Shown here in pieces: positions 15,600 through 61,848 of a stretch of 64,000 nucleotides of DNA (position 1 is the first letter of the stretch; the number at the start of each line of letters is the position of its first letter). This DNA is from Squalus acanthias (Eukaryota), in contig CM059434.1 in assembly GCA_030390025.1 (NCBI GenBank), positions 45,384,001 through 45,448,000 on the forward strand, written 5' to 3'. The notes below the pieces were generated by a model. That model ran no database searches and was not told where the DNA came from. It saw only the letters and a program-made list of their open reading frames with translations. A program made the translations under genes and the position numbers.

Positions 15600-16100
15600 G
15601 AAGGGGGTAGTGACACGTCCAATGAGCTCATTGAAAGGAAGAAAGCCGTGCATTTTATTTAAGGCGGTTGAGCGTCCGGTGGAAGCGGGCAACTTCACTA
15701 CCGCTGGAGAGTGGAAGAGAATTGGTCACCAGAGATAGATGTGATCGGGAGAAAGCCCCGGAGCTCCGCTCAGTGACATTTTGACAGCCTGGTTCAAGGA
15801 ATCAGAGCGAAAGGGATCGATCTGTCTGAAAATCTTCGGTAAAACTCGGCAGAAATGACGCCTGTTGCTGGATTTTACACCGCAAAGGCGCTCCTAACGT
15901 TGAGCGTGGTCACCCTCTTATTTTCACCCTCAGGTAACATATTGTGGGAAAGGTTGACTTCAGTTGTTTAATTCCAACATGGAGGCGGCAGGACGGGAAG
16001 TTAATGTTCTGCCTCCCACAGCCGGTCGCTGCCGCCTGCCCCGAGTTATCCGAGGTTTCAGGGTGGGTGGTTTTGTTGCAGGATCATGGCGTGTTATTCC
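15600..16100 (+). promoter_or_regulatory. Probable promoter/first-exon region of the B7-H6-like gene
   Basis: Non-repeat, locally CpG-rich stretch around the signal-peptide exon, with CCAAT (about 15619) and ATTGG (15721); TSS not determinable. Confidence 0.5.
15855..15933 (+). CDS. NCR3LG1-like: B7-H6-like gene exon 1, signal peptide: MTPVAGFYTAKALLTLSVVTLLFSPS(G)
   Basis: ATG with purine at -3, hydrophobic core, CAG|GTAACA donor in phase 1 matching the phase-1 IgV acceptor at 35840; linkage across the 19.9-kb intron is inferred. Confidence 0.72.
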
Positions 16101-17284
16101 TCTGGTTTGTGACCGAGCAGATTCTGCTCGCCTTGTTTGGACAAAACTCACACTTTTCCCCAACCCAGCCCCTCGGAAAACCCTGACCTTAAAGTCGCTC
16201 ATTGCTTCACTTTTATCAAAGCTATTTTTATCCCAGAAGCAGAACTGTTACATGGAACTACTAACGGGTTAGTTACTGGGTAGGATAAGGCCCAACAATG
16301 ATTCTTCAGCGATGTTTATGTTTTGTTGGTGGACTTTAGCCGACCTTGGGATAGGAGTGCATGAGGAGATAAATCTTCCTTCACCTGCCCATGGAAGGAG
16401 GGGATTGGAAACTTGATGTTTCAATAGAACGCTCGCCCGTCTTCACAAAATTCAGCCAGCAACAGAATTGGTCCTTGAGTGCCAGAACTAGTGCAAAGCA
16501 AATCCTGAAAATTGAGTTAAAAAAAAATGACCAAATGGAAGAAAGCAATAGGTACTTGTGTGGTGTAAGGGGTGTGTGCGACTGTTTCCAACTTGTGTCA
16601 GCAACATGAATTCAGAAACACAAATGTAATGTAAATATTTGCAGATAACCAACTTTGGAGAGTGGGCAATTGGGTCTGATGGGGTCAAGGATACTACTAA
16701 AATTAACTAGATAAAATGCGTAATTTAAAGGAACAGTAGCACAGTATTGCCAACCCCACCAATTCAAAAATCAGGAGACAAACTCTTAAAAATCGTGGGG
16801 GAGAAATTTGGCAGCTTAGTGCCTCCAGTTAGTGCAACGGGGTGCTGAGGCAGTAGCGCTGCGGCGAGGCAAATTCAGCGTCACATGCCAAATTCGCCCC
16901 CACCCCCCCGGTAGCGCTGCCGCTATGAGTTAGCGCCGGGGACTTCCACGCCAGGCAGATCGTGACACGTGCAATGCTCACTGTGCCCCCGATCTGCCAA
17001 ATTGAGTATCACCCCCTGCCTTAGCGCCTCGCCCTGACAGCGACAGGGAGAGGAGGTGTGAAGCAGTCGGTAGCCAGCTCCAGGGGCGCTACTTAAAGGG
17101 ATCATGAGTAATGAGTTGCAGCTCCCAGGTTAGTGCTGTTTCAGTGCTTCCTTGTCAGTTTGTCATTGTGCAACAGTTTAAATCAGTCATTTAAAGGTTG
17201 TTTAGTCTCTGGAGTGTTGTGGCAACTAAAAATTAGCGACATTTATTCTCACAACGTAGCAAAGTGCTGCACTTGGTTACATTA

Positions 17285-18458
17285 ATGGGGGCTGTACTGG
17301 CAGTTGACCTCGCCCCCCAGGATCTACGGTGGAGGGAGCGGAGGCAGCGAGAAAGATTGGAACATGTGGTCAGAGGGAGGAGAAGGGCCGTGAGGGCTCT
17401 CAACAGGAGGCCTTATCCTCCGAGAGTCTTCCGACAGCAATTCTCCTACCTCCAATTAAGCCAGGAGAAGTGTATTAGAAGGCTCCGCTTCAGCAAGGAG
17501 GTGGTCACAGAACTCTGCTACCTCCTGCAACCAGACCTCCAGCCTCAGGTCAGGACGAGGACGGCTCTCTCAGTGGCAGTCAAGGTCACTGCCGCCCTCA
17601 ATTTCTTCGCCAGCGGATCCTTCCAGTCTGCAACAGGAGACATAGCTAACATCTCACAGTTCGCCATCCATCGCTGCATCCAGGAGGTCAATCAGGCTCT
17701 CTACAGTAGGAGAAGGGAGTACATTTCCTTCCCCATCACCAGAGAGAAGTAGGACGAGCGTGTATGTGACTTTGCCCATGGTGCAGGGTGCCATTGACTG
17801 CACCCACATGGCTTTGCAGGCACTGCATAACAATCCTGACATCTTTCGTAACCACAAAGTCTACCATTCACTTAATGTCCAGTTGGTGTGTGACCACAGA
17901 CAGTGAATCCTCACCATCAATGCCCACTATCCTGGCAGTAGCCACGATGCCTTCATCCTGCGCCAGACCGGTGTTCCAGCACTCTTCCAGCCACCACATC
18001 AAGCTCGTGGCTGGCTGGTCAGAGACAAGGGGTATCCGCTCTCTACCTGGCTCATGACTCCCCTCCGCAACCACAACACTCCTGCACAGTACTCATATAA
18101 TGAGATCCATGCCGCCCCCAGGAACATCATTGAGCAGACCATCGGGGTGCTCAATCAACGGTTCCGCTGCCTTGACCACTTGGGAGGAGCCCTCCAGTAC
18201 TCACCAGAACGGGTGTCCCAATTCGTCATGGTCTGCTGCATGCTCCACAATCTGGGCATCATGAGGGTCCAGCCGTTGCCACCAGGGATTGAGGGACCAC
18301 CTCAGGAGGAGGAAGAAGGAGAGGAGGAAGAGGAGGAGGATGACGAGGAAGATGAGGAGGAGGAGGAGGAGGAACAGGAGCGAGGGAGGAGGCAGCCATT
18401 CAATCGGCCTTCTGGAAGGGCGGTCCATGACCGCCTCATCAGACTGTGGTTCCAGTAA
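17285..18458 (+). pseudogene. Harbinger (HARBI1-like, DDE_Tnp_4) transposase of element A, disrupted
   Basis: [48 protein letters not shown] motifs; stop at 17750, further stop and frameshift; poly-acidic C-terminal tail. Confidence 0.92.
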
Positions 18459-19785
18459 ATTCAACCCCAGAACCCCGTTGCTCACCACATCCCCATCATT
18501 CCATCCCTGTCGCAGGCCATACCACAGCGCAAAGCTGAAATGAGAGAGAGTACAAAATTATTCGAAGTGAATTCATAAATTTATCAATAATCAGTGAACA
18601 CATATTTACAACAACAATATTAGCTATTCACCCTTGTGCAATCCCTTAGTGCCTGTCGTTACTGTGCCTTTCCCTACTCTAGTGCTCCTACGAAGTGTTG
18701 GCCCAGTGGCTGCAGCACAGTGGGTGAAAGGCTGCTGAGTGTCCTTGTGCGAGTCGTCAGATGGCCTTGCAGGACGTCCTCAACCAGCTCTGGGCCTGGA
18801 AGGCCCGGCTGTAGACTGCACCACCTCAGCATGGGCAGCAGCAGTCTGGGCTGGCTGGATGACAGGCAGCGACAAGGACAATGGTGGAGTGACAGTGGTG
18901 GGAGCAGGAATGCTGTCATCCTGAGAGAGGACAGCAGGTTCCTGCTCCACTGACCCACTGCCACTCCCCCGGGGCAGCACCTCAGCATCCCTAGGAATCT
19001 GTTGCAGCACAGATTGCTGGCCTGCTGCAACACCATGAAAGCCCCGGTCGACGGTGATAGACCCAGCCACGATGGCAGCATACAGTCATAGAGTCATAGG
19101 GCTCAATTTTGCCAGGTCCGAGGAGGCGGGGTTGGAGGCGTGTGAGGTGGTAAAATCGTAAAAAAAGGCGGGCGGGCCCAATCCTGCCTCCGAGCAATTT
19201 TCCCACATGCGTGTTTTCTGACCCCATTTCCATCCCACCTCCAAGAGGCAGGATAGGCCCTTAAGACCCTTAACAACCACTTAATTGCCTCTATAATCCC
19301 ATTTTGAGAGGCCTTTCTGATTTTAACACTTTTCCCATGTGCTGCACGTCTCCTCTGGAACATGCCAGTGAATCCTGGCGGCATCACAAGTGGATTGCTT
19401 ACTAACGGCTGCAGCTCCACCATTAAAAAGGAGTTTTCAGCAATCATCATTTGCAGGTGGCAGAACTTTGTTGTCTCAGGTCTGGGGGAACTTTTAGCAG
19501 GCCTACTCATTGTTCTGGAAGTTTGGAGCCTGACACCCATCTCCAGTGTGACCTCCTGGGAAACCCCTCTCTGCACCTTGAATGAGCGCTTCCTCAACTG
19601 AGGTATATACCAGAAGAATGGGAACCATTTATTTCCTTTCCTCCTGGACATCAGATTCGGACAAAGACCATCCACGGCAGCAGCAGAACCCTGAACAACA
19701 GCAGCACCAACTGCAGGAGCAACAGCAGGAGCTCTAAGCTGCTGCTCACCCACCTGAAGCTGCACAGGCCAGAAGGCGCCAGCGC

Positions 19786-26770: not shown

Positions 26771-26774
26771 AGGC

Positions 26775-27629: not shown

Positions 27630-27689
27630 AATATGTCCAGCCACCGTGGAGAATAAGCAACAAAATAAATAATTCCTAAATCAATAGAG

Positions 27690-35148: not shown

Positions 35149-35839
35149 TTCGCTATCAGTAACTCTGAGAAGCAGCAGAATATGAATGAAACACCACAAG
35201 GCTGCATGGGCCCCTTAAATGCAGCTGAATGGAAGACGTCAGCAGAGGCGAGCAGCAGACCCGAACCCACTGATTGGGCCGGGTAACGCGCACGGCGGGC
35301 TTAATAGGGAAAATAGTTATTTCAAAGCGGCTGAAACCGGCAGTGGGACCGGAACCCACTGACCAGCCAACCTGACTCCAACCCGCTGCCTATGGTAAAA
35401 TCGTGGCCGTAGAGACAGCATTATAACTCTGCACTGGCAGCCTTTGCTTTGGTTTTGGGTATCTATAGTCTAACAATGTCCTTAAAGTCACTTTAAATTG
35501 TTCCTTACTTTAGAAATCAAATTTGTTTCAAATTTCTTGGTTTTCTTTGTGTAATAATTAAAAATAGAATACTAACCAGTGTTCCCTTTAACCTGCCGCA
35601 GCACTCTGCAGCTCCTGCGCAAGTAGCTCACCGGCTTTTAAATAGGAAAAACCCTGCGTGTGCGGTATTTTGAATGAGCCGCACAGCCTCTTAAAGGGCC
35701 ATGCACCGAAAAAAATAATTAAAGGGAACATTGATACTAACGTGTCTGATATATTTTAATCTGAGGTGGTAATTCTTCTGTTTGTAATCATGATATGAGA
35801 TGAATAATAATATATTTCAAACTTTTTTTTTCTGTAAAG

Positions 35840-36187
35840 GTACTTTGCATATGGACATATTTCAAAGTCCACTGAAAGTTCTTGTGAATGAAGATGTTCT
35901 TCTGGGATGTAAAGTGTCAGGCTTCAACACTGCAGAGCTTGACCTGGATTATGTAGCTATCCAGTGGTTCTTGGTACATGAAAAAATCAGGAGAAAGGTG
36001 TATGTGTTTAATAAAGGGAATCATTCCTCGATTAGACCAGGCGCAAGAATTAATGAAGATGATTTGCGGACAGGAAATGCTTCACTGTATCTTCCAAAAA
36101 TACAAATCAACGAAGAAGGACAATACACCTGTACTGTATTTTATACTCCATCAAAAGCAGAAAAGAGCTCAGTGATCCAAGTGTTAG
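35840..36187 (+). CDS. NCR3LG1-like: B7-H6-like gene exon 2, IgV domain
   Basis: Phase 1-1, 348 nt; C...W...GNASLYLPKIQINEEGQYTCTVFYTPSKA and KVYVF..H...RPGA closely parallel human B7-H6 (KVFEF..DH...RPGA; [29 protein letters not shown], from recall). Confidence 0.93.
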
Positions 36188-36234
36188 GTAATTAAAAAAA
36201 AATAAACTTTGTCTGTATTGCTGAGACCTATCTT

Positions 36235-36345
36235 AAAGTAAGAAGTCGCACAACACCAGGTTATAGTCCAACAGTTTTATTTGAAATCACAAGCTTTCGG
36301 AGCTATCGATCGCCCCTTCCTCAGGTGAAGTAAAGAGATACAGAA
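36235..36345. repeat. Short repeat fragment (probable Penelope-like terminus)
   Basis: CACAACACCAGGTTATAGTCCAACAGTTTTATTTGAAATCACAAGCTTTCGGAG; class assignment from recall only. Confidence 0.4.
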
Positions 36346-36514
36346 TCGCCAAAGCATATATAGATAGAGAACAATGCATGTGTTACTTACAAAAGCAGAC
36401 TGTTCACATATCTAAGACATATTTAACATATTTCACATATTTAAGACATATCTTAAAGTATATTTGTCCATAAACCTGCTTACTGAAATTGGTTATAGCA
36501 CACACAAGAACATA

Positions 36515-36940
36515 AGAAAGGAATGGCATTTATATTGCACCTTTCAAGGCCTCAGGATGTCCCAAAGTGCTTTACAGCCAATTAAGTACTTTTGAAGTGT
36601 CGTCACTATTGTAATTTAAGGGAACCCGGCAGCCAATCTGCACACAGCAAGGTCCCACCAACAGCAATGTGATAATGACCAGATAATTTGTTTTAATGAT
36701 GTTGGCTGAGGGATAAGCATTGGACAGGCCACTGGGAAGACTCCCCTGCTCTTTGCTTAGTGCCATGAGATCTTTTGCATTCACCTGAGAGGTGGTTTAA
36801 CATCTCATCCAAAAGAAGGCAACTCCAACAGTGTAGCACTCCCTCACTACTGCACTTATTATGTGCTCAAGTCTCTGGAGTGGGGCTTGAACTAACAACC
36901 TTCTGACTCAGAGGTGAGAGTCCTACCACTGAGCCAAGGC
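36515..36940 (-). mobile_element. Deu-domain SINE
   Basis: Reverse-complement similarity to 4925-5285; tRNA-like head (GTTAGTTCAAGCCCCACTCCAGAG on the minus strand). Confidence 0.75.
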
Positions 36941-37104
36941 CTGTTATTGTATCAGACTGTATTTAGTGGAGTAGCTTTGGATATAACCAGGTCTAAAATC
37001 ATGATTTCTTTTTGTATTGAGAGACATAGGTCAAGGCCCCTAATGCAGGACACAAAAAAGGTTGCAAATAATAGAATGAAGTGGTGGTTTGGTGTCATCA
37101 AGCT

Positions 37105-37545
37105 TGTAGGAACAAAGGAACAGGAGTAGGCTATTTAGCTCCTCGAGCCTGTTCCACCATTCAGTGAGATCATGGCTGATCTGCAGCCTAACTCCATATA
37201 CCCGCCTTTGGTCCATATCCCTTAATAATTTTGGTTAACAAAAATCACCCCTTAACCTTCTAAATTCTAGGGAATACAACCCTAATTTGTGTAATTTCTC
37301 CTTGTAATTTAACCCTTGGAGTCCGGGTATCATTCTGTTAAACCTACTCTGCACTCCCTCCAAGGCCAATATATCCTTCCTAAGGTGTGGTGCCCAGAAC
37401 TGAACACAGTACTAAAGCTGTGGTCTAACCAGGACTTTGTATAGCTGCAGCATAACTTCTACCCCCTTGTATTCTAGTTCTCTAGATATAAAGGCCAGCA
37501 TCCCATTAGCCTTTTTGATTTTTTTCTGTGTTTTCTATACTTTTT
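37105..37545 (-). mobile_element. CR1 fragments (3' UTR and ORF2 piece)
   Basis: GGAACAGGAGTAGGC..CCTCGAGCCTG tail region; minus strand LVRPQL*YCVQFWAPHLRKD. Confidence 0.75.
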
Positions 37546-39333: not shown

Positions 39334-39361
39334 GCTGAATTTACTTTTTTCTTGTATACAG

Positions 39362-39682
39362 CTCGACCAAAGATCAGCTTGTCCACTGAATGTGTTACAA
39401 TCCCAAATGGTTCAAAGGGGTCTGTGAGATGTGACGTTACTGGATTCTATCCACGGCAGCTAGATATCCGCTGGGAAAAGTTATCGCATGGGAAAACGGA
39501 AAGTGTTACGAGCAAGGATTCTGGAGATGAACTGGTTAGAAATGATGATGGGACATTTAATCAATCCAGTCAAATATATATTGCAGCAAACCTAGAAGAT
39601 GATGGTATTAATTACCGATGCATTGTGAAACACCCGTCTCATCCTAATGCCACTATACTGGAAGCTCAACTCATTGTCACAG
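39362..39682 (+). CDS. NCR3LG1-like: B7-H6-like gene exon 3, IgC1 domain
   Basis: Phase 1-1, 321 nt; RCDVTGFYP..WEK...RNDDGTFNQSS...EDDGINYRCIVKH; both canonical Cys; 3 N-glycosylation sequons. Confidence 0.93.
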
Positions 39683-40667
39683 GTATGCCTTGTTTTATGA
39701 GGAATAGAGTATTTCAAGTACTAATGTTAGGAGCTGTAAGCATTCATTTGGCACTCTGCAATTCTACTGTAAATAGTGCAACAAAAACAAGTTAAATGTA
39801 GCACTTCGGCTATGGTAATGCACTTTCTGCCCATCTCTGCTGAGGGGGAGGCTGATTCTTACTGGAATATGGTTATACATTTACCATTACCCTCCTGTAC
39901 CTCACCAAATGCCCATTCTTCATCTTTGTACCTATACATTGAGTGCTGGCAGGCTATTCCACTATGGGTCCTATCTTCAGCTGATTCCACACACAAGCAC
40001 TTCCTAGCATGGCTGGCTGCATAGTGATCGGAAGCAGGAATCATGACTAACTGATTTTTCTTTTTCCGTTCACTCGGCTGAAGCTAATTGCTGAAATAAG
40101 ATAAATCGATATAGACTTGGGGATGAAACCTGGGGTTGTCTTGACATAGCGTATGGCTTCGTACCACACCAGGCAATGCACTTGCCCACTAACCATCTGG
40201 GAGAGCTTTGATGCAATCATTTTGAATAGGGTTAGGCTAAGCAGACTACAACAATACAGAAGCATTATAATATATTACAATAAATTACTTAACATATTTA
40301 CTCGTTGCTCCACAGATCTGTGACCATGTTTTGCACATTGTTTTTGGATGCTTGCCAAATAATGCTAATTGTGTAATAAATGTCAAAGTAAATCAGTTTT
40401 GTGTTACTTCAGTGTGCATGGTTCGGCTCACGTTGGCAGTGTGAATGTGACAAGTGGATTTATGTGGGTTTGCAGCAGGAAAGTACTGCTGCTTTTTTCC
40501 CGAAAATTTGAACTAAAACTCTGAAGCCCAATTCTTATATTGTACTTCTATCCTTACAACAACTAGGTTCTTAAGTTGGACAGAATGTGTTGCCTGCTGA
40601 AACAGAATTCATCAGTGAGCAAATGGCTTGTGTCTCATTTTAAAAACAATGCTGTTTAGAATGCAAT

Positions 40668-43445
40668 TTTTTTTTATTCGTTTATGGGATGTGGGTGTCG
40701 CTGGCAAGGCCAGCATTTATTGCCCATCCCTAATTGCCCTTGAGAAGGTGGTGGTGAGCCGCCTTCTTGAACCGCTGCAGTCCGTGTGGTGAAGATACTC
40801 CCACAGTGCTGTTAGGGAGGGAGTTCCAGGATTTTGACCCAGCGACGACGAAGGATCGGCGATATACTTCTAAGTCAGGATGGTGTGTGACTTGGAGGGG
40901 AACTTGGAGGTGGTGGTGTTCCCATGCGCCTACTGCCCTTGTCCTTCTAGGTGGTAGAGGTCGCGGGTTTGGGAGGTGCCGCCGAAGAAGCCTTGGCGAG
41001 TTGCTGCAGTGCATCTTGTAGATGGAACACACGGCAGCCACGGTATGCCGGTGGTGGAGGGAGTGAATGTTTAAGGTGGTCGATGGGGTGCCAATCAAGT
41101 GGGCTGCTGTGTCTTGGATGGTGTGGAGCTTCTTGAGTGTTGTTGGAGCTGCACTCATCCAGGCAAGTGGAGAGTATTCCATCACACTCCTTACTTGTAT
41201 CTTGTAGATGGTGGAAAGGCTGGTAAGGAGGTGAGACACTCGCCACAGAATACCTAGCCTCTGACCTGCTCTTGTTGCCACAGTATTTATGTGGCTGGTC
41301 CAGTTAAGTTTCTGGTCAATGGTGACCCCCAGGATATTGATGGTGGGGGATTCGGCAATGGTGATGCTGTTGAATGTCAAGGGGAGGTGGTTAGACTCTC
41401 GCTTGTTGGAGATAGTCATTGCCTGGCACTTCTGTGGCGCGAATGTTACCTGCCACTTGTCAGCCCAAGCCTGAACGTCATCCAGGTCTTGTTGCATGCG
41501 GGCATGGACTGCTTCATTATCTGAGGAGTTGTGAATGGCGCTGAACACTGTGCAGTCATCAGCGAACATCCCCATTTCTGACCTTATGTTGGAGGGAAGG
41601 TCATTGATGAAGCAGCTGAAGATGGTTGGGCCTAGGATACTGCCCTGAGGAACTCTTGCAGTGATGTCCTGGGCTGTGATGATTGACCTTCAACCACCAC
41701 AACCATCTTCCTTTGTGCTAGGTATGACTCTAGCCAGTGGAGTGTTTCCCCCCCGATTCCCATTGACTTCAGTTTTACTAGGGCTCCTTGATGCCAGACT
41801 CGGTCAAATGCTGCCTTGATGTCAAGGGCAGTCACTCTCATCTCACCTCTGGAATTCAGCTCCTTTGTCCATGTTTGGACCAAAGCTGTAATGAGGTCGG
41901 GAGCCGAGTGGTCTTGGCGGAACACAAACTGGGCATCAGTGAGCAGGTTATTGGTGAGTAAGTGCCACTTGATGACACCTTCCATCACTTTGCTGATGAT
42001 TGAGATTAGACTGATGGGGCGGTAATTGGCGGGGTTGGATTTGTCCTGGTTTTTATGGACAGGACATAGCTGGGCAGTTTTCCACATTGTCGGATAGATG
42101 CCAGTGTTGTAGCTATACTGGAACAGCTTGGCTAGAGGTGCGGCTAGTTCTGGAGTATAAGTCTTCAGCACGATAGCCGGGATGTTGTTGGGGCCCATAG
42201 CCTTTGCTGTATCCAGTGCGCTCAGCCATTTCTTGATATCACGTGGAGTGAATCGAATTGGCTGAAAACTGGCTTCTGTGATGGTGGGGACCTCAGGAGG
42301 AGGCCGATATGGATCATCCACTCGGCACTTTTGGCTGAAGATGGTTGCAAACGCTTCAGCCTTGTCTTTTGCATTCACGTGCTGGGCTCCACCATCATTG
42401 AGGATGGGGATATTGATGGAGCCTCCTCCTGCCGTTAGTTTTTAATGGTCCACCACCATTCACGACTGGATGTGGCAGGACTGCAGAGCTTTGATCTGAT
42501 CCGTTGATTGTGGGATTGCTTATCCCTGTCTATAGCATGCTGCTTCCACTTTTTAGCATGCATGTAGTCCTGTGATGTAGCTTCACCAGGTTGGCACCTC
42601 ATTTTTAGGTACGCCTGGTGCTGCTCCTGGCATGCTCTTCTTCACTCATTGTTGAACCAGGGTTGGTCCCCTGGCTTGATGGTAATGGTAGAGTGAGAGA
42701 TATGCCGGGCCATGAGGTTACAGATTGTGGTGCAATACAATTCTGCTGTTGCTGATGGCACACAGCGCCTCATGGATGCCCAGTTTTGAGCTGCTAGATC
42801 TGTTCTGAAGCTATCCTATTTAGCATGTAGTGCCACACAACACGATGGAGGGTGTCCTCAGTGTGAAGACGGGACTTCGTCTCCACAATAACTGTGCGGT
42901 GGTCACTGCTACCAATACTGTCATGGACAGATGCATCTGCGACAGGTAGGTTGGTGAGGACGAGGTCAAGTAGGTTTTTCCCTCGTGTTGGTTCTCTCAC
43001 CACCTGTCGCAGGCCCAGACTGGCAGTTATGTCCTTCAGGACTCGGCCAGCTCGGTCAGTAGTGGTGCTACTGAGCCACTCTTGGTGATGGACACTGAAG
43101 TCCCCCACCCAGAGTACATTCTGTGCCCTTGCTACTCTTAGTGCTTCTTCCAAGTGGTGTTCAACATGGAGGAGTACTGATTCATTAGCTGAGGGAGGGC
43201 AGTAGGTGGTAATCAGCAGGAGATTTCCTTGCCCATGCTTGACCTGAAGCCGTGAGACTTCATGACGTCCGGAGTCAATGTTGAGGACTCCCAGGGCCAC
43301 TCCTTCCTGACTGTATACCAGTGTGCCGCCACCCCTGGTGGGTCTGTCCTGCCGGTGGGACAGGACATAACCAGGGTTGGTGATGGAGGAGTTCGGGACA
43401 TTGGCTGAAAGGTATGATTCTGTGAGTATGACTGTGATTATGAGC
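40668..43445 (-). mobile_element. CR1-group (CR1/L2/Crack-like) LINE with most of ORF2 (APE endonuclease + RT), frameshifted
   Basis: ILTESYL, RGGG, VGDF, LDLVLTN, SDH endonuclease motifs; NYRPISL, LDIKAAFDRVWH, FADD RT motifs; poly(A) tail at about 40668. Confidence 0.92.
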
Positions 43446-43569
43446 ATATGTTTGCAAATTAAGAGGCGAGATTTTTATTAGTGAGAAACCTAAGTTGAGG
43501 GCCAATGTCCATAGTGTAGGTAAATTGATCAATGGCAGTTAGTTGACATCAAGCTTGGGTTTTAGTAAG

Positions 43570-44030
43570 AAAGAAAAAGAAAGTCTTGCATTTATATAGC
43601 CCCTTTCACTACCTCAGGACGTCCCAAAGCACTTCAGAGCCAATGAAATACTTTTGAAGTGTAGTGACTGTTGCAATGTAGAAAATGCGGCAGCCAATTT
43701 GTGCACAGCAAGCTCCCACAAACAGTAAATAAATAAATGACCAGATCATCTGTTTTAAATGCTGGTTGAGGGATAAATGTTGCCCAGAACACCAGGAGAA
43801 CTTCCCTTCTTCAAATAGCCACGAGATCTTTTACATCCACTTGAGAGGGCAGATGAGGCCTCGGTTTAACGCCTCATCCGAAAGACAACATCTCCGACAG
43901 TGCAGCACTCCCTAAGTACTGCACAGAAGTGCCAGCTTAGATTATGTGCTCAAGTCTCTGAAGCAGGGCTTGAACCTACAACCTTCTAACTCAGAGGCAA
44001 GCAAGATACCACTGAGCCACAGTTGACGCA
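43570..44030 (-). mobile_element. Deu-domain SINE, near full length
   Basis: Tail AAAGAAAG..CTTGCATTTATATAGC; same core as 4925-5285; tRNA-like head with B-box GGTTCAAGCCC on the minus strand. Confidence 0.8.
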
Positions 44031-44384
44031 GTAGCCTGTGGATTGTACAAGGAACTGAAGACCTAAGGAGTAAGGAATTTTACATTTCTAAAGTTCAAAA
44101 AATAATGAGTGGAGCTGTGCAAAATGTAGCATATATAAGCATATTTGGTGCAGTAACAATAAACAACTAGTAGATCACAAGATAAAGCCCTTGCTACAAA
44201 ATGTACTTCAGGGCCCATTCATAATATTCTCAATAGTACAGATAATATACTGAGTGAGGGTTAATGTTCCATGTATATATTTTATATGTACACAAAAAAG
44301 AGTAATATCTGTCCAATTCTACATACCATGGTATCAGTATATACATTTACATAAGGGAAATAGATATTTATTTACATATATACA

Positions 44385-44535
44385 AAAGGGAATTGGATAA
44401 GTACCTGAAGGAAAAAAAATGCTGGGCTATGGGGAAAGGGCGGGGGAGTGGGACTAGCTGAAGTGCTCTTGCAGAGAGCCGACACAGGCTCGACAGGCCA
44501 AATGGTCTCCTGTACTGTAACCATTCTATGATACA
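44385..44535 (+). mobile_element. CR1 3' UTR fragment
   Basis: Matches 46040-46185; ends CTGTAACCATTCTATGA. Confidence 0.75.
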
Positions 44536-44850
44536 TTATACGTGTAACTTGCCTGACCAGAGCTTCAGTAAAGACATTTGGACTGTGTGTGTAATTTATT
44601 CGATTTTTAACTTTGGGAGGTGTGAGGGAAAATGAAAATGAACTCTGCATTGCTATAAAAAGTATGGAGGCTTCTTGGAATCCTTCTCATCATATACAGA
44701 GCTGTTAAGAGCCATCAATAGAAGTTTGCTAGAAAATATTCTAATACAGATTTCTTTTAGCTTCCTATTAATACATATCGGTGAGGTGTTTTGTTTCTTG
44801 AACAGGCTTTAGCACGTGTTTATCTGCTCCACATGTGTTTTTATTTGCAG

Positions 44851-44955
44851 ATTCTAAGAGCACTACCTCAGTCGGAGTAATTGTTGGAGTTTTAGTTGCA
44901 TTTGGTGCATTTGTTGTTGCTGGATTTTACTGTTACTTCAAAAAGCATCGAAAAG
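44851..44955 (+). CDS. NCR3LG1-like: B7-H6-like gene exon 4, transmembrane: DSKSTTSVGVIVGVLVAFGAFVVAGFYCYFKKHRK
   Basis: TTATTTGCAG acceptor, AAG|GTAATG donor, 105 nt, phase 1-1; 23-residue hydrophobic run followed by basic stop-transfer KKHRK; not in the ORF track. Confidence 0.9.
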
Positions 44956-45371
44956 GTAATGTAATTTATCTTCATAAATAGGACTGTTAGAACTGTAGCC
45001 TGTTGTCTTATGTAATTCATATAACATGCTTTACATTTTTAAGTGTAGTTGTCACTGACCAATGCTTCAGTACAATACATTTGCATTAGGTGCAATCCAC
45101 CACCCCGGCTTCAGTAAACACATTTAAACTCTACAATTGAGTACAATAAATACATTTAAAGGGAATACTCTACAATCACACACAGTAAATACATTGCAGG
45201 GATGAAATTGCACTGGGGTGTAATCACACTGGTGATCTTAGCATATGAATGTATTAATAAACTCACTTGCATTTCATCTCTTATTTTAATCAAGGTATTA
45301 TTGTTTAATTGAAATAGAATGATGCTTTTGTTAAGATAGCAGACAGAAAATGTTAATGATCATATACATAT

Positions 45372-46186
45372 ATGGGCGGACATGTGGCAGATGAAATTTA
45401 ATGCAGAAAAATGTGAAGTGATACATTATGGTAGAAAGAATGAGGAGTGGACATATAAACTAAATGGTACAATCTGAAAGGGGGTGCATGAACAGAGAGA
45501 CCTGGGGGTATGTGTGCACAAACCGTTGAAGGTGGCAGGGCAGGTTGAGAAAGCAGTTAAAAAGGCTTACGGGATCCTGGGCTTCATAAATAGAGGTATA
45601 GAGTACAAAAGTGTAGAAATTATGATGAACCTGTATAAAACACTGGTTTGGCCCCAACTGGAGTACTGTGTCCAATTCTGGGCACCACACTTTAGGAAGG
45701 ATGTGAAGGCCTTAGAGAAGATTTACAAGAATGATTCCAGGAATGAGGGACTTCAGTTACGTTGATAGACTGGAGAAGCTGGGGTTGTTCTCCTTGGAGC
45801 AGAGAAGATTGAGAGGAGATTTGATAGAGGTGTTCAAAATCATGAGTGGTCTAGACAGAGTAGATAGAGAGAAACTGTTCCCATTGGCAAAAGGGTAGAG
45901 AACCAGAGGACACAGATTTAAGATGATTGGCAAAAGAACCAAAGGCGACGTAAGAAAAAACTTTTTTACGCAGCGAGTGGTTAAGATTTGGAATGCACTG
46001 TCTGAAAGGGTGGTGGAGGCAGATTCAATCTTATCTCTCAAGAGGGAGTTGGATAAGTATCTGAAGGAAAAAAATTTGCAGAGCTACGGGGAAAGGGCAG
46101 GGGAGTGGGACTAGCTGAGAGCCAGCACGGGCTCAACGGGCCGAATGGCCATCTTCTGTGCTGTAACCATTCTATGATTCTATGAT
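45372..46186 (+). mobile_element. 5'-truncated CR1 LINE
   Basis: QRDLGV...LEYCVQFWAPHFRKD...FFTQRVVKIWNAL; (ATTCTATG)2 tail. Confidence 0.92.
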
Positions 46187-46693
46187 AAATATTGCAAATT
46201 AAACTACATATATACTTCAACACCTGTGGGTACAATAAATACAATTAGACAAGGGTTTGTTAGGCTTCTGCAAATATCTTTGAAACAGAGTGCATCCATA
46301 TCGTTTCCATATTTTGTCTCCACAGCTATGTGACGCCAGTAAAATGTTAATTAATCTCTAATATTGGGTATCATTTGAGCTTATTATAACCCTGATCTGG
46401 TGTTTCAATCTTGAAAGACATTGGCCGCGAATTTAATAGAGGAGGCGGGTTGGAGTCGGGTTGCCTGGTGGGCAGGTTCCGGTCCCGCTTCCGGTTTCAG
46501 GTGCTCCCGATTTGCGAATTTAATTTAAGTTGCCTAATTAGGCCTGTCGTGCGTGCTGGCCGGTCCAGTGAGTGGGAGCGTGTCTGTTGCTCTCCACTGA
46601 TGACGTCATTGCTGCAGTTGTTTTTAAGGGGCCCATGTAGCCTCAGCCTCTCATTTCTCCTTTCTGCTGCAGTTTGAATGGGCCCTGGCTACA

Positions 46694-49421
46694 ATGACTG
46701 CTGCCAAAGCCAAGGCTGCTCCAAGGTTCAATGAGGACTTCCTCCAAGCTCTTGTGGAGGGAGTAAGAGGGCGCAGGGAGATTCTGTTCTCTCCCGATGG
46801 CCGGAGGAAGCCTCCTCAGCAAACAAAGGCAGCCTGACTGTACATTGCTGAAGAGGTAAGCACTAGGTCCTTACATTCACGCACCTGGGTCAAGTGCCGA
46901 AAACGGTTTAATGATCTTCTGCAATCATCAAAAGTGAGTATCACATCACATTTACCTTCAATCTGCTTCCCTTCTCTTCTCATCACCAGCATTGTCAGCC
47001 TGCTCCTCCGCATCCCACCTTACCCTTACTTCCTTTGCACCCTTACCTATCCATCTCTCTCTCTGTACTGAATCACTTCACCATCCTACTATGCACCCCT
47101 CACACTCGCTCTCACTGTTATGCAATGACAACAACTAACAATGCACAGGGAGGCAGCTTCTTCTTGGCACCTCACTCCATCTTGGTCTCCCTCTAAGCTT
47201 CTATGTTATGGATTCTTCACAGTCACACCATCACTCTCGCTGAAACTCCACTTGTGTCCCTCCTTGCAGGAAAAGATAGCCCACAATAAGAGGGAGAGAG
47301 CGAAGACAGGAGGAGGCCCACCATCCCTGGCAACATTGACAAGTGCTGAGGAGGCTGCGCACGAGATCGTGGGCGGTGGCGAGGAGCTGGAAGTGGGGGA
47401 CAGAGAGACAGACTAGATGAAGCTGGTGACAGAATAGATTTTCAACCCTCGTATTTAGATTTCATGATTGACTGCAATGGCATATGATGTTCATAGAGAT
47501 TGGGCTGGATTTTGATACTGGGGTCGGGTTGGTGTCGTGAATCCCACATTTTGGGTTGTAGACCCGCCTCCATCGAGATGTGGCCAACCCACTGTATTTT
47601 CCCTTGATTGACCTTGTTGAGCCCGCCCAGTGGGCTCAGCAGGCCAATTAAGGGCCACCCGGCAACAGGTGACGTCACAGATTGACATTTCATCTGTCAA
47701 GAGCTTTTGACAGATGAAATATCAGCGTTTGACAGCTCTGTGAAGCTGTCAAACACTGACAATATGATTTCTAACTTGAGTCCTTCCTCTCAGGCTGAGT
47801 TAGAAATCATTCCAGCACAGAAAACAGAAGGCTGCAGTTTTTGACAGCACCACAGCTTTTCTGCTTTCTGTGCCGGTGAGATTTCTGACTCCCGAGAACT
47901 GAAGGGCTGACACCTGCAGGAGGAAGTTAAGGTAAGTAAAACTTTTTCCCACACTTAGCACTTACCTTACACACTTACCTCTGCACTCATGCACCCATCA
48001 CTCACCTGCCCACCGGACACATCGAACCCTCCAACCCCTGCAGACCCACGGTCCGCCCAGATAACTTGGCGTGGTTGCCACCTGTCGGGAAGCCCACATT
48101 TCAGCCGTAAAAATAAGGATTAGGCAAAAAACTGCCTGTTAACAGACAGTTAATTGTCACTAATCCCTTCCCGCCTCGGGGAGTCGGGTCCCAGCACAGG
48201 TCGGGTACCCGCCGCCAGCGAAACTGGCATGGAGGCGGGATGGGGTCGGGACCCCCGAATCTGCAACTTTAACCCCCCACATGCCTCCAAACCCGACTCC
48301 ACGGGTCATTGAAAATCCAGCCCATTGACTTTGGATCATCTGCACAATAGGATGTGTCTGCTACCTAAAAATCAGATGTCTAACTCATGCCTTTACTCTC
48401 CCACAGGACCATCGAGAGCCCCCCTCCCCACTGTCCAGGAGGAAGAGCCGGACGACTCCTCAGAGGAACCTGCAGCCTCTGAGGGAGCAGCGTCACCAGT
48501 ACTCAGCGCACCCAGCACCAGCGCAGATACGCACACCTCAGTGGGGCCTTCGCGACATAGAGTAGTGTTGTCACCTGGTGTATCACAGCTCACAAGTGAG
48601 CATTAGCAGATGGTGGAGATAGCGATAGCAGTGGAGAGTTCGCATCGGAGGTCGCAGGATGCTCCTAGCTCGGCTCAGCTGCATGTAGAAACTGTGTCTC
48701 TGGGGCCATCCAGAAAGGGAGCGGTGCTGGAACTCAAAGAACAAGTGCAGGAGTCTCTGACAGGGTTTGCATCCAGGGTAACTGCGAGTGTGGAGAGAAT
48801 GGAGGAGTCCATCTCAAACATGAACACTGCCTTTGTGGAGGCAATGGCGCATGAACATGCTGCCATGGAGAGGGTGGCAACCTCCATGGAGGCCATAAGT
48901 CACCAGACTCAGGAGAACATGGTGACTCTTCTGAAGAGATGGTCTGCTATGGAAGATAGATGGGCATCTATTGAGGAGAGATACCAGAGGTACATGGACA
49001 TTCCCATGATGAGGATTGTCAGTACAGAGATGGGTTCTCATGGCCTCACTGATGTGCAGCAAGGTGCTCTCCAGCACTTGCTAGCACTGAAGTGCGGGTG
49101 ACCCATGAGAGGGATGTTGGTGACAGACAACAAGGAAGTGTGGGCTCCTCTCCAAGCGCTCACACGACCATGCCACTGCGGAGCACTCAGTCAGAGCCCC
49201 AGATTCCTCACCCAACTGAGATGGCCGTCTCAGCCCCTGCACAGCTGCAGGAAGAGCAGACTGTGGAGGAACCCTCCCAGGCTCCCAAACCCAGAGGATG
49301 CCCGCCAAAGGCGTCTAAGCAGATGCAGCAGCAAAGTGAGCAAGGTGCCTCTACATCTGCTGAAGCAACAGGGGAAGCACCACGTAGAAGCACGCATAAG
49401 AGGAAGTTAACACACAAATAG
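46694..49421 (+). pseudogene. Myb/SANT-like gene of element E (3 exons, several stops)
   Basis: MTAAKAKAAPRFNEDFLQALVEGV...; EKIAHNKRERAKTGGGPP; stops near 46837, 47414, 48604. Confidence 0.88.
47502..48323. mobile_element. MITE nested in intron 2 of the Myb-like gene of element E
   Basis: Perfect 12-bp TIR GGGCTGGATTTT; ATT TSD; uninterrupted site in element D at about 34315-34355. Confidence 0.93.
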
Positions 49422-49704
49422 TCACAAGGGTAGTCACTTGGGTATTTTGTTAAGTTGTAAAGTTTTGATTGTCATCCTTTTGTGCTATGATTAAACAAAA
49501 GTGATGGCAAAGAGTTGAAGTTCTGGCCTATGTGTTCTGGGAAATGGAAGTTGCACATTGAGGGCTCAGGGTGACTTGCATTTGTAATGATGGTGCTGAG
49601 AGTAATACGAAAGCATCGTTTATTGAAGAGATGATGTATGGCGTGTTAAGAAGGTGATCCACACATTCATAGCCATATGCCAGCCACCTGTGGTTGAAGC
49701 ATAA

Positions 49705-50899
49705 GCTTCCGCGAATCTGACATGGATGAGTGCATCGCTTGCGTGACGGCCAGCAACGTGGTCGAGTGCTACTGCATTGGCCACATCCGGCCCCGCAAGG
49801 CGTGCCTCCTCCTCCTCGTCCTCCCTGTCTTCCAAGGATGCTCTGCACTGAGCCACTTGTTCCTCAGGCAGCGCTAAGCCACACTGCTGTGTGATTTTGT
49901 GCAGGGCACAGCAAACGATGATGATTCTGGGCACCCTGGCTGGTGCATACTGCAGGGCTCCACCAGATCTGTCGAGGCATCCGAATTGCATTTTGAGCAA
50001 GCTGATGGTTTGCTCTATGATGCTTCTGGTGGAAATGCGGCTCACATTGTACCGCTCCTCAGCCTCGTTTGATGGCCTCCTCATCGGTGTCATGAGCCAC
50101 TTTTTCAGGGGATAGCTCTTGTCGCCAAGTAGCCATCCGGAAAGTTGGGTTGGCGGATTGAAGAGCTGAAGCACAGTAGACTGCCGCAGGATGAAGGAGT
50201 CATGGCAACTGCCAGGGTACTTTGCACAAACATGGATGATGATCTTCCTGTGGTTACACACCAGCTGGACGTTAAGGGAGTGGAATCCCTTGCGGTTGAC
50301 AAATACAGCTGGGTTGTGATGGGGTACCTTAATGGCCACATGTGTGCAGTCTATGACGCCCTGCACCATTGGGAAGCCTGCCATATTTACAAAGCCAATT
50401 GCACGCGCAGTTACACTTGCTTCAGCTGTGGAGAAGTGGATGTAATTGTGAGCCTTTGCAAAGAGGCATGCATTATGCAGGCGTGTGCGGCCGACTGGGA
50501 GATGCCGCTGATGTGTGCAGTGAATCCCTGGAATGAGCCCAAAGCACAGAAGTTGAGTGCGGTGGTGACTTTGACAGCCACTGGTAAGGAGTGTCCACAC
50601 GCTCCTCTGGGCTGCAGCATTGTGCAGATGTCAGCGACTACCTCTCGCGAAAGTCTCAGCCTCCTTTGGCACTGCTGCTCACTCATGTTGAGGAAGCTCA
50701 TCCTCTGCCTGTAAACCCTGTGTTGCGGGTATCTCCTGCAGCGCGGTGCAGCCCTGCGCTGACGCCTTCTGCCCTGTGCATCATCAGGTAGCTGAGGAGA
50801 AGGTTGGCGCTCCTGTTGTTGCTGCTGGTTGCACTGCTGTCGCAGCTGCTTTGCCTCCAAATTGGACAACCAGGATGAGAGGATATAAATGGTTCCCAT
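49705..50899 (-). pseudogene. Harbinger transposase of element E (frameshift from a small deletion at about 50470)
   Basis: [10 protein letters not shown]...Q-rich; VIDCTHV, CHDSFIL, GDKSYP, IIEQTI. Confidence 0.92.
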
Positions 50900-51833
50900 A
50901 CCGCTGGTATATATCTCAGTTGAGGAATGGAGGTTGCGCTCAGACAAAGTGGCCAGAGGGTATTCGAAGGAGCTCACACTGCAGATGGATTTCAGCCTCA
51001 ACACTCACAAGATTAGTAGAACTGAAAAATGTCTCCCAAACCTCAAAGCACTAAGTTGTGGCATGTGAAAGAATGAGAGATTGCAGGACTGCTTTTAAGC
51101 TGTTTGAGCAGCTGCCAACAATTCAGGTCCTCGTTCAACCCGGCTCGATTCAGCTGACGTGTTTTTCTGAAGGCGGGCAGCATGGTGAAAAACCTGCACA
51201 ATCCAAACAGGCAGTTAAAATAGGATTATCCAGGCAGTTAACAAGCTCTTAACTGCCTCTCCCGCCTTTTGGTGTCAGGTCAGTTCAGGAGCGGCTGACC
51301 CGACACTTGCCAAAGTCGCATGGAGGCGGGATGGTGGCGGGTTCGCAGCCCGCCGTCAATTTTTCCGCTTTTTGCTACCGGCCCGCCTCCAAACCCGCCC
51401 TCTGAGGTCTATTAAATTCACGGCCATTGCTTCTTCCTAGAACCTGATGCAAACACACTTGTCAAAAGTTGATTTCTGTAATGGTGACAGTTTCCAACAT
51501 AAAACAAAAATTGGCAGTAGCAGTGCAAGATATGAGCTCTTTAACAACAGCTGTTGAACGGAAGAATTCAGGAAACTCTAGTAGATTAATTAATGAAGAA
51601 TTTTTGGTCAGTTAGTGTTGCTCACTAGTGGGGTTCAGGATATGCCAATCTGGCACCCTCAGTATGTTACAACCTGGAAACATGCTCTCAGCCTTAGTTA
51701 GTTTCTGTAGAGAACGTGCATTTTTACAAGTGAAAGTGATAGCCATATTTCTAAAACAGGTATTGTTGAGTTACATTTATTTCATCATGAAGGTCCCCAT
51801 TTATGTTTTTCCCCATTTTTTTCTCTGTTTCAG

Positions 51834-52157
51834 TGCCACCCCCCAGCATATCAGAACTCACCTGTAGCCCTAATGCTGAGCCAGGAAAAGAAGTCACATT
51901 GCTCTGTACCATAAGTACATTGTTTCCAAAAGACATTGAGGTTCAATGGTACAGAGACAAAGTGGAAGTTATAAATGGAGGTAACGTTGGAATGGTGATG
52001 GAAGAGGGATTTTCTGAAGGTGGATTGTCGAATATAATTGCAAAAACAATTTTCATTCCCATCTTGGATGACAACCAAGTGGAATACAGCATTAAAGTTA
52101 CTCATCCACGGGCGTCAGCAATACCTGTTGAACGTAGTATGAAGCTAATCCTGCAGG
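51834..52157 (+). CDS. NCR3LG1-like: B7-H6-like gene exon 5, post-TM Ig C1-like domain 1 (no F-strand Cys)
   Basis: Phase 1-1, 324 nt, strong splice sites; VTLLCTISTLFPKDIEVQWYR...VEYSIKVTH. Confidence 0.88.
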
Positions 52158-52401
52158 GTAAGGGCAATAGTTTTATTTGGCTCCATTGCACTGTAGTATT
52201 TAGACATTTTAAGGCATGATGGAAGAAAGATTTGTTTTGCACTGTGTGAGAAAGATACAGCATTTGACAAGTGAAGGTAATTTATTAAAGCCATTTTTTG
52301 GAAATATTAGATTAACATTATGATCATTTTGAATATTCTGACAGAAAGCTGTATTAAATATTGGCTCAATTTAATGGGGCGAGAAACTAGCTGAAGACAT
52401 T

Positions 52402-53125
52402 GGCCTGGAATTTGCGGTCGGGATGACAGTGAACTGGAAGTGTTTGCCGTCATTCCGCCTTTGAAACTGACTGCAACTTTCGGCATTTGGCGCATGCATA
52501 GGTGTATGCAGAAATCCCGAGTTGCTGTCAGTCATTGACAGCTGGGAAACAGGCTGCACTGTGTAATCAGCCAAATCATTGAAACTGATGAAAACTTTGG
52601 CTCTTCTGCAGTAAGAACATTGTTAAATTCCCCACTAAAGTTAGACCCAAAGGGATTAGGTGTAACTGGGGTTTTAACAGCGTATTGACTGCTAAACAAA
52701 TACTAATGGCCTGGAAAACTAATTTTATTTTGGTGCTGTGAAATTTGTCCATTCTAATAAAAATTAACATTTTTAAGAAACTTTTCAAGTTTGTCCATCT
52801 TTATTTTAGGTTTGCCTTTTCCCCATGTGCGAGCCCCAATCTTTGTTTTGCTCTCTCTGACATTTTTTTAAATTAGAATTTTAACAGCTTACCCACTTCC
52901 TTGTTCGCTGTCTGTGAGAATTCTGCCTTTTGATTGGCTGTTTAGACAGCCTGTTGACATCACAGCAGTTCCCACAAGGGGATCCCCACTACAGTCCGTT
53001 GAATTGAATTGAAGGTTGGAAAACCCGAAGTTCTCGGCCCAGGGATTGTGAGGTCCTTGTGCAGAGCGTGCTTCAGGGCCAGCAGCGAACACCTTCACTT
53101 CGCTGCTGACCGCAAATTCTGGGCC
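52402..53125. mobile_element. Harbinger-type MITE
   Basis: TIR GGCC(TG/CA)GAATTTGCGGTC; ATT TSD; absent from duplicate copy 2 (about 55460). Confidence 0.9.
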
Positions 53126-59567: not shown

Positions 59568-59888
59568 CGCTCCCTCCTTTAGTATCAGAAATTGCTTTCA
59601 CTGCTAACCCTCAACCAAATCAGAAAACAACTTTGTACAGTACCATAAGTATGTTCTTTCCAAGAGAGATAGTAGTACAGTGGTTCAGAGGGGAGAAAAA
59701 AATCAAAAAGAGAGAGAAATATGGAATAAGCATGGAGGAATTTGCCAGTGAACAAGGACTGTTCAAGACAGCAAAACTAACCTTCACTCCAATGCCTGAT
59801 GATGATCAAGTCCTATACAGAATGAAAGTTGCTTATCCAAAGATAGCCATGATGCCTACTGAGCGCAACTTTCTACTTGATTTAAAAG
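59568..59888 (+). CDS. NCR3LG1-like: B7-H6-like gene exon 8, post-TM Ig domain 4 (cysteine-free)
   Basis: Phase 1-1, 321 nt; TTLYSTISMFFPREIVVQWFR...VLYRMKVAY. Confidence 0.87.
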
Positions 59889-60744: not shown

Positions 60745-61135
60745 TTGATGGCCCAGTAGGTAAAGGCACTGTCCAAGATAGCGCTAAGCCATAGAGACCA
60801 GAAGGCCCCAGGTTCAATTTCTGATCTGTGCTGAGTTCAGCAACTGGGGCACTTCAATTGGCCTCAGTGCACCTGGACCATGGAGAGTAAAATCAGTTAG
60901 AGTTCTTGCTCCTGCTCACTATCCAGTGACTCTGCTAGCGATTGTACATGTGTAGACATTGGGTAAGGACATGGCTAGGCTTGGATATGAAGCCCTCCAC
61001 GGTTGAATAGACTGCAGGATTTTGTCTTTGTGCACTTGTGTAGAATAGCCACTTAGTTGAACTACTGGAGGGTGGTCAGTGCCCATGAAACACTCTGCCA
61101 CAATAGGCAGTGGCTTCAGAAGAGGAGAAAAGTAG
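60745..61135 (+). mobile_element. tRNA-derived SINE-like repeat
   Basis: A-box-like TGGCCCAGTAGG and B-box-like GGTTCAATTTC; related copy at 30695-31100. Confidence 0.6.
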
Positions 61136-61531
61136 CTATAATTTAGTGTTACACACAAACAGAAAATGCTGGAAATACTCAGCAGGTCAGGCAGCATCTG
61201 TGGAGACAGAAACAAAGTTAACGTTTCAGGTCGATGACCTAGTCTAATGCGAGTAGCATTATTACTGCAGTATGAATGTGTGAGCTAAAAACTTGTATAA
61301 AAACAATGGTTGGTCCTGGGGAGCCTGAAATTCCTGGAGTTGCTATTAATCTAAGGGTTAATAATCTGATTGCAGGGAAAAAAAGCATATTAATTTGAGG
61401 GTAAGTGTAAGAATTACAGAGTGAAAGCAGTGGTGAATGGATGTCAGGTATAAACGTACTTAAAAAAAAATGTGCTAAATTAGTACACAAATTAATTTAT
61501 TGCATGGCTAAACTTTTCTACTTCATTTCAG

Positions 61532-61848
61532 GAATTCCTCCTGTTGTACCTAGTATCACATGCTGTTCAGACCCTACACCTGGAGAGGAGGTGACTTTAT
61601 GCTGTAATATATGTGCATATTTTCCAAAAGATATTAAAGTAGAATGGTACAGAGGCAAGGCAATAATTGAGCCAAATGACAAATGTGGAGTGATTATAGA
61701 AGAATCCATCGAGGACACATATTTCAAGTTCACAGAATTAACTTTCACTGCAAGCGCCGACGATGATCAAATGGAATACAAGATTAAAGTTACTCGGATA
61801 AGTTCAAACACATCACCTACAGAACGCAGTTTCCTGCTTCGGTTTTGA
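61532..61848 (+). CDS. NCR3LG1-like: B7-H6-like gene exon 9, post-TM Ig domain 5, ending in TGA two nt before an intact GT donor
   Basis: Phase-1 acceptor TTCATTTCAG; VTLCCNICAYFPKDIKVEWYR...MEYKIKVT...ERSFLLRF*. Confidence 0.82.

Follow-up and report, generated by a model that had tools for sequence, protein, structure and literature searches.

A shark B7-H6-like gene predicted to carry an array of C1-derived immunoglobulin domains on the cytosolic side of the membrane

Can C1-set immunoglobulin (Ig) domains be placed behind a membrane anchor, in the cytosol? These domains are a hallmark of antibodies, T-cell receptors and major histocompatibility complex (MHC) molecules and are regarded as extracellular. 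The question is raised by a stretch of 64,000 nucleotides from Squalus acanthias (contig CM059434.1, positions 45,384,001 to 45,448,000, hereafter the window), in which a gene resembling that of B7-H6 (NCR3LG1) has five exons for C1-like domains downstream of its transmembrane (TM) exon. In the reading preferred here, to which a probability of about 0.86 is given, the gene is a real, expressed shark co-orthologue of NCR3LG1, and its product is a single-pass type I protein with Ig domains in the cytosol; that a real gene with a cytosolic tail is present is held slightly more firmly.

Gene model, transcripts and identity

The gene model consists of nine exons (79+348+321+105+324+324+318+321+317 nt), which encode 818 amino acids with one terminal stop; AG acceptors and GT donors are found throughout, and every intron is in phase 1. 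The domain order of the protein is signal peptide, IgV, IgC1, TM and five C1-like domains (T1 to T5). This architecture had been proposed in the initial annotation of the window and was confirmed by checking splice sites, phases and translation and by Pfam profiles. The exons are as follows:

15855..15933, + strand: exon 1, signal peptide (amino acids 1-26); ATG with an in-frame stop 5 codons upstream; hydrophobic peak 1.65
35840..36187, + strand: exon 2, B7-H6-like IgV with C50/C124 and 2 sequons; Pfam V-set 34.1 bits
39362..39682, + strand: exon 3, extracellular IgC1 with C166/C229 and 3 sequons; Pfam C1-set 39.1 bits
44851..44955, + strand: exon 4, stalk, 23-residue TM and basic stop-transfer cluster; hydropathy 2.63; phase 1-1, 105 nt
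51834..52157, + strand: exon 5, tail domain T1, C1-derived, F-strand Ile; Pfam C1-set 30.2 bits
54876..55199, + strand: exon 6, tail domain T2, recent T1 duplicate; Pfam C1-set 29.9 bits
58961..59278, + strand: exon 7, tail domain T3, F-strand Ile; Pfam C1-set 39 bits; 75-86% identity to three shark orthologues
59568..59888, + strand: exon 8, tail domain T4, zero cysteines; Pfam C1-set 25.1 bits; 66-84% identity to three shark orthologues
61532..61848, + strand: exon 9, tail domain T5, six cysteines, F-strand Ile, stop codon; Pfam C1-set 32.4 bits; 73-89% identity to three shark orthologues

The start of exon 1 is shared with the shark orthologue P0001, whose AlphaFold2 model has a helix at residues 7-24, and a hexamer scan placed a poly(A)-type hexamer at 61882, 3' of exon 9. 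Past the leader, residues 257-279 are the sole strong hydrophobic stretch (19-residue Kyte-Doolittle peak 2.63), with KKHRK next. Both domains before the TM have their canonical cysteines and together hold 5 sequons, against 2 after it, as first annotated. The annotation had also stated that no second TM exon follows the first. None was opened by the three strong acceptors found in the TM-T1 intron (at least 80% pyrimidine; one of them the real T1 acceptor), but this threshold misses 6 of 8 real acceptors, so that the statement stands for strong acceptors while a weak alternative tail exon is possible.

Transcripts were looked for among contigs from four runs mapped on positions 35700-52500, with T2-T5 outside that span; the runs are presumed to be RNA, although not recorded as such, and their spliced contigs show that transcripts are in them. 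In runs X1 and X2 a single contig has the V exon spliced to the C1 exon, followed by 137 further letters, which equal the TM exon (108 including shared letters) plus 29. Coverage of the bin 44676-45236 was 6.68 and 7.0 in these runs, against 6.64 and 6.99 calculated as the depth of the V-C1 contig x 108/561; the bin is thus accounted for by the 108 exon letters, which places the TM exon on the V-C1 contigs and leaves no remainder for read-through. If the assembly used 31-letter words, a 29-letter remainder would be expected where a contig enters the T1/T2 repeat. The T1 exon is covered by contigs starting at the exon edge in all four runs, and the T1/T2 repeat contig starts at 51833. The T1/T2 piece was 2.2, 2.0, 1.5 and about 1 times as deep as the V-C1 piece, figures that were not used as evidence. 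From these data we infer that the TM exon is spliced to T1 in Squalus acanthias. Of the junctions, V-C1 is seen spliced in X1 and X2, that to the TM exon follows from length and coverage arithmetic, and 44955/51834, which the annotation had singled out for checking, is inferred only.

The B7-H6-like nature of the ectodomain, also part of the initial annotation, is supported by sequence match, structure overlay and chromosomal position. B7-H6 is the best Protein Data Bank (PDB) match of the IgV domain (E 5e-12). The AlphaFold/Foldseek check, which was run on the orthologue P0001 (51-row alignment), gave a model with a mean predicted local distance difference test score (pLDDT) of 84 and a predicted template modelling score of 0.38. 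It contains a leader helix, a TM helix at 259-281 and then five separate beta-sandwiches without fixed mutual arrangement, and its ectodomain overlays B7-H6 structure 3pv7 with a target template modelling score of 0.90 and a root mean square deviation of 2.0. Contig C10 carries, in succession, an RPS13-type exon at 45.047 Mb (-), PI3Ka at 45.19 (-), NUCB at 45.335-45.343 (+), the B7-H6 cluster at 45.39-45.67 (+) and KCNJ11 at 45.694 (-), the PI3Ka and NUCB matches being family-level only. This order and orientation are those around human NCR3LG1 (RPS13, PIK3C2A, NUCB2, KCNJ11). No ABC_membrane match that could represent ABCC8 beside KCNJ11 was present on C10 among the 57 matches listed. PMC2715080 places the human B7-H6 gene at 11p15.1 and describes IgV and IgC on phase-1 exons followed by one TM, an organization also found in the window gene. 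The interval between NUCB and KCNJ11 holds at least four paralogues, two of which show the exon succession V, C1, TM and six tail domains. As judged from sequence, the window gene is thus a co-orthologue of NCR3LG1 at best, one of the at least four paralogues in the interval.

Further copies and remnants were noted around the gene. Contig C1615 has six more IgV matches (50-56% identity), with tail exons nearly identical to the C10 copies; they may represent additional paralogues or else an alternative haplotype. In the next paralogue downstream the TM exon is present in two copies, and there are two D1-like exons (L022:4703-4804, L023:8611-8706, L025:115-531 and 2686-3111; D1 is the first ancestral tail domain, see below), a second local duplication. 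In the third paralogue the D1 exon (L026:7807-8246) changes frame in its middle and has the dileucine motif described below in its second part; a broken gene, a small intron or an assembly error could each account for this. Upstream of the signal-peptide exon, at about 9914-10234 (+) of the window, lies a frameshifted C1 exon, 39% like the chimaera tail domain D3 and probably the relic of an earlier paralogue. A 2-oxoglutarate/Fe(II) dioxygenase exon is found at 3506-3664 (-), between NUCB and the cluster; its DIOX_N score of 26.7 bits falls just short of the cut-off, and the genome contains one match. The introns (17.2-25 kb, 31-35 kb and 47-51 kb; 40.7-43.5 kb; 57.9-58.6 kb) contain PIF/Harbinger-type transposon copies (DDE_Tnp_4 at 17907, 19738 and 49620) and pieces of long interspersed nuclear elements (endonuclease, reverse transcriptase).

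Relatives of the gene and the side of the membrane

Orthologues with the order V-C-TM-(C)3-5 were found in Pristiophorus (822 amino acids), Heterodontus (753 and 645) and Heptranchias (761), with identities to the window protein of 66-89% in the tail domains and 80-92% in those of the ectodomain. The same order in the proteins of other sharks provides independent support for the TM-T1 join. A profile of the five tail domains, searched against 1.84 billion representatives, gave 539 matches, a set that is biased because the query lacks cysteines; the best 150 of the 539 were analysed. V-C(-C)-TM followed by at least two C domains was found in 70 of these; another 24 finish with TM-Cn, no TM was called in 40, and in 16 the TM comes last. 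The tails range from 2 to 14 domains. Names were obtained for 30 of the 150 (chimaera, sawshark, bichirs, two teleosts, coelacanth, lungfish, caecilian, newt, frogs including Xenopus tropicalis, turtle, alligator, lizard and snake), with a TM before the array in 29 and one TM-less protein. Several clusters already bear the name NCR3LG1 (alligator, corn snake, Rhinophrynus). When the alligator ectodomain alone served as query, 19 reptile proteins were returned, of which 18, close kin rather than independent cases, have V-C-TM-C4-6 and one is without a TM. Neither birds nor mammals occurred among the 30 named of the 150 tail-profile matches or the 19 ectodomain matches, although such searches do not show absence. 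An atlas search returned solely auto-named chordate C1 clusters, at 0.91 or less.

In a tree of tail domains, those from sharks, coelacanth, lungfish, amphibians and reptiles cluster according to their place in the array, as eight types (D1-D8), which indicates that the array is old. On this sequence evidence, V-C1-TM-(C1)n is an old jawed-vertebrate layout, present from chimaeras to crocodiles, and not a shark oddity, and the cytosolic array looks like the ancestral form of B7-H6. The guess made at first annotation, that amphibians and reptiles may have unannotated proteins of this kind, was borne out, and the suggested search for the architecture succeeded in sharks, amphibians, reptiles and further lineages. 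Four predictions (P0010 from a frog, P0012, P0027 and P0030) have only 10-16 C1-like domains and no called TM; they could be partial models or soluble cytosolic C1 arrays. A frog-containing branch (P0031, P0034, P0046 and relatives) has a SIRP-like V-C-C-TM ectodomain with the same kind of tail, up to 14 domains long, which suggests that the tail may have joined more than one type of ectodomain.

The topology follows in the first place from the gene model: with one leader and one TM, the tail is cytosolic unless the leader fails. In 64 of the 70 V-C(-C)-TM-Cn proteins of the family, the net charge following the TM exceeds that preceding it. The canonical cysteine pair is intact in 77 of 86 domains before the TM, in 177 of 386 after it and in 137 of 139 control extracellular domains, with 14 and 23 gapped domains set aside; in the 18 reptile proteins picked by ectodomain, it is kept in every ectodomain C1 (18/18) and in 30 of 96 tail domains. 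The ratio of observed to expected sequons was 1.72 before and 1.16 after the TM in the 70 proteins, and 1.52 and 0.92 in the 18 reptile proteins. Acidic dileucine motifs are cytosolic adaptor-binding signals. One is present in the long loop of D1, at a single alignment column in 19 of 51 aligned rows. Within residues 41-100 after the TM, a window that was picked after the consensus was known and in sequences that are related, the motif occurs in 29 of 72 proteins, where shuffled sequences would give 5.2; of the other tail windows, 29 out of 584 contain it, and of the ectodomain windows 21 out of 243. These signs of charge, cysteines, sequons and sorting motif point to a cytosolic tail, and so favour the type I topology with cytoplasmic Ig domains that had been annotated.

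Descent and role of the tail

All five tail domains score above the Pfam C1-set cut-off (25.1-39 bits vs 21), whereas their I-set scores are below cut-off or absent, and they have the C-strand Trp and the seven-strand sandwich with a D strand of C1-set domains. The B-F intradomain disulfide is absent from all five: the F-strand residue is I, I, I, M and I, as in the initial annotation, and T4 also has no B-strand Cys. The domains are therefore C1-derived rather than canonical C1. Their description as disulfide-less holds for the canonical bond but not for cysteines in general, of which the tail has 13 (2+2+3+0+6 in T1-T5). Six of these are in T5, where all four shark orthologues share a Cys-Cys pair in the first strand; the T5 cysteines are candidates for acylation, metal binding or redox control. 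Of the 60 PDB sequence matches listed for the tail, one is titin and the other 59 are antibody constant, SIRP-alpha or CD1/beta-2-microglobulin chains. An AlphaFold2 model of a single tail domain, built on a 5-row alignment, had a pLDDT of 50.

The best match of each of the five domains is the ancestral domain D4 (74-88 bits), with which they group in trees (support 92 in the fast tree, 80/74 in the careful tree). T2 departs from T1 at 4 of 324 nt, within a 1-kb duplication at 83%, which indicates one recent duplication. The five domains thus probably descend from D4 alone, D1 and its sorting loop being missing from the window gene. Since just 1 of 30 assigned D4 domains retains both cysteines, the five cysteine losses are taken, given the D4 placement, as probably a single old loss multiplied by exon duplication, T1/T2 being the latest, rather than as five separate signs. 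Of the proposal that C1 exons were recruited to the cytosol and lost their disulfide, the cytosolic position is retained, but the D1-D8 tree makes the array old and not recent in the window gene, and cysteine loss is specific to certain domains. Several candidate features were rejected: two dileucine-like matches in the window protein (amino acids 705 and 811) are located in G strands and were discounted as signals; a match resembling an immunoreceptor tyrosine-based inhibitory motif (ITIM) at amino acid 694 lies within the T4 F strand; and a chimeric origin, with ectodomain and tail from different paralogues, was hinted at by the tail-domain tree and by a quick tree without a human sequence but was unsupported (P = 0.44 in the approximately unbiased test).

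A mechanism can be proposed on this basis. Outside the cell, the glycosylated, disulfide-bonded IgV-IgC1 part would engage an NKp30-type receptor on killer cells, as human B7-H6 binds NKp30 according to PMC2715080; by orthology, the window protein is somewhat more likely than not to be such a ligand. The five C1-derived domains would form a flexible chain in the cytosol and serve as a docking and trafficking scaffold governing where and how long the ligand stays at the surface, and its clustering. In the canonical paralogues the acidic dileucine of D1 would drive uptake, and the remaining array would bind cytosolic partners or cluster the ligand. The window paralogue, having lost D1 with its signal and amplified one domain (probably D4), may be more stable at the surface and multivalent for one partner. 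That scaffolding and trafficking would be the main job of the tail is suggested with a confidence somewhat short of an even chance.

Besides the choice of the motif window, several observations weigh against this account. CD276 lies near B7-H6 as a match to the IgV domain (4e-11 vs 5e-12). The 29 letters past the TM exon are unseen and fall below the 31-letter bar for a bridge, and the remainder in X5 is 28 letters and not 29. D2 keeps both cysteines in 52 of 58 assigned domains and D3 in 31 of 33, which a cytosolic site does not require, and the family gene models P0037, P0057 and P0203 are without a TM. The D4 origin has a support of just 80/74 in the careful tree, and the window gene itself is without the D1 dileucine motif.

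Three other explanations were considered. The unseen letters at the joint bear on a mis-join of two genes, in which a short-tailed B7-H6 would end past the TM and the downstream Ig exons would belong to another transcript; a transcript reading on into the intron would encode a tail of 8 residues, poly(A)-type hexamers being present at 45145 and 45256, and TM-less C1 arrays are known among frog predictions (P0010). But the coverage of bin 44676-45236 is wholly explained by the 108 exon letters, with no read-through contigs in X1 and X2, the TM-Cn join recurs in 94 of the best 150 of 539 matches from independent annotation sources, and two complete paralogues of the C10 cluster have the same exon order, so that a mis-join is very improbable. 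The TM-less models, which join the ectodomain straight to the array, and the Cys-keeping D2 and D3 suggest that a secreted isoform may exist; the 105-nt TM exon, in phase 1-1, could be skipped in frame. That the array mainly functions in such a secreted or lumenal form, with extracellular C1 domains and a secondary membrane form, is nevertheless improbable, if less so than a mis-join: by length and coverage arithmetic, the TM exon follows C1 on contigs of X1, X2 and X5, a TM is kept in 18 of the 19 ectodomain-found proteins, tail sequons are not enriched, the dileucine is a cytosolic signal, and the window array has no canonical Cys pair in any of its five domains.

The remaining explanation accepts the topology and takes the tail mainly as a decoy or sensor for pathogen proteins that hit stress ligands from inside, from which fast change in copy number would follow. 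The range of 2-14 tail domains, the recent T1/T2 duplication, the at least four paralogues on C10, the six IgV matches on C1615, the upstream relic C1 exon and the doubled TM and D1 exons of the next paralogue would fit this idea, as would the down-regulation of human B7-H6 by cytomegalovirus given in the title of PMC5561058. Against it, the tail domains of sharks are almost as conserved as the ectodomain (66-89% vs 80-92%), and the D1-D8 positions are kept across jawed vertebrates, to which fixed host partners are better suited. We regard the decoy as unlikely, and the type I co-orthologue with a cytosolic tail remains the preferred reading.

In a wider scenario, the B7-H6 of ancestral jawed vertebrates would have had a cytosolic array of 6-8 C1-set domains that included a dileucine loop for endocytosis; chimaeras, sharks, bony fish, amphibians and reptiles would have retained this array, so far undescribed, over about 450 million years. 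On the human line it would have been swapped for a Gag-like module, which may share the clustering and trafficking job, and the window gene would be a shark branch with its tail rebuilt from one domain. Taken in all its parts, this scenario is tentative and as likely to fail as to hold, or a little more so. The layout is already present in public predicted proteins, mostly under uninformative names. A literature search found no description of Ig domains in a B7-H6 tail or of cytoplasmic C1 arrays, the likeliest places, a 2012 study of B7H6 evolution and a 2015 review, being outside its coverage. Flajnik et al. in 2012 reportedly treated B7H6 evolution in Xenopus and sharks, and a related review is said to be that of Ohta and Flajnik in 2015. 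The available parts of PMC12227049, PMC13262535, PMC6514059, PMC10751288, PMC11599192 and PMC2715080 do not describe Ig domains in the B7-H6 tail. The odds that the ancestral cytosolic C1 array is unpublished are put at slightly under even. If the scenario is true, a conserved cytosolic C1 array on an NKp30 ligand would broaden the roles of the C1 fold, provide an ancestral state to set beside the unexplained Gag-like tail of human B7-H6, and make it possible to test directly whether surface display and reverse signalling are governed by B7-H6 tails; entries labelled 'obscurin-like', 'CD276-like', 'SIRP-like' or 'uncharacterized' would become B7-H6 relatives.

Comparison with known systems

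Human B7-H6 resembles the window gene in its order of signal peptide, IgV, IgC and TM, in its phase-1 introns, in giving the best PDB sequence match and, among the fold-search results, the nearest two-domain overlay, and in its chromosomal neighbours. It differs in its length of 454 amino acids and in a Gag-homologous tail with ITIM, SH2-binding and SH3-binding motifs (PMC2715080). A tail of this kind was not found in the window protein, whose 534-residue tail gives five C1-set matches, and the window gene is one of at least four tandem paralogues. Further close systems are the predicted NCR3LG1 proteins of crocodilians, turtles, squamates and Rhinophrynus, together with uncharacterized proteins of chimaera, sharks, bichirs, two teleosts, coelacanth, lungfish and amphibians, all with V-C1-TM-(C1)n and n mostly 3-12. 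The tails of these relatives are mixed (D1 with the dileucine loop, D2 and D3 with both cysteines, D4-D8), whereas those of the window gene and three shark orthologues are D4-like only.

Titin and obscurin share tandem cytosolic Ig domains with the window tail. The top Foldseek rows of the full-length model are multi-Ig chains such as titin I65-I70, although the titin match has a query template modelling score of 0.20 and reflects repeat count, and one Heterodontus orthologue was auto-named 'obscurin-like'. The arrays of titin and obscurin are I-set and are not known to have a membrane anchor; in the window tail, by contrast, C1-set is the best Pfam family of all five domains and none qualifies as I-set. 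CD276 (B7-H3), tapasin-related protein (TAPBPR) and shark UrIg2, the next-best IgV matches, have V-C1-type ectodomains. CD276 and TAPBPR have short tails and are not known to be located at NUCB2-KCNJ11. UrIg2 has nine C1 domains, but according to PMC12227049 they precede its TM and cytoplasmic part and are thus extracellular, whereas the array of the window protein follows the TM and would lie in the cytosol.

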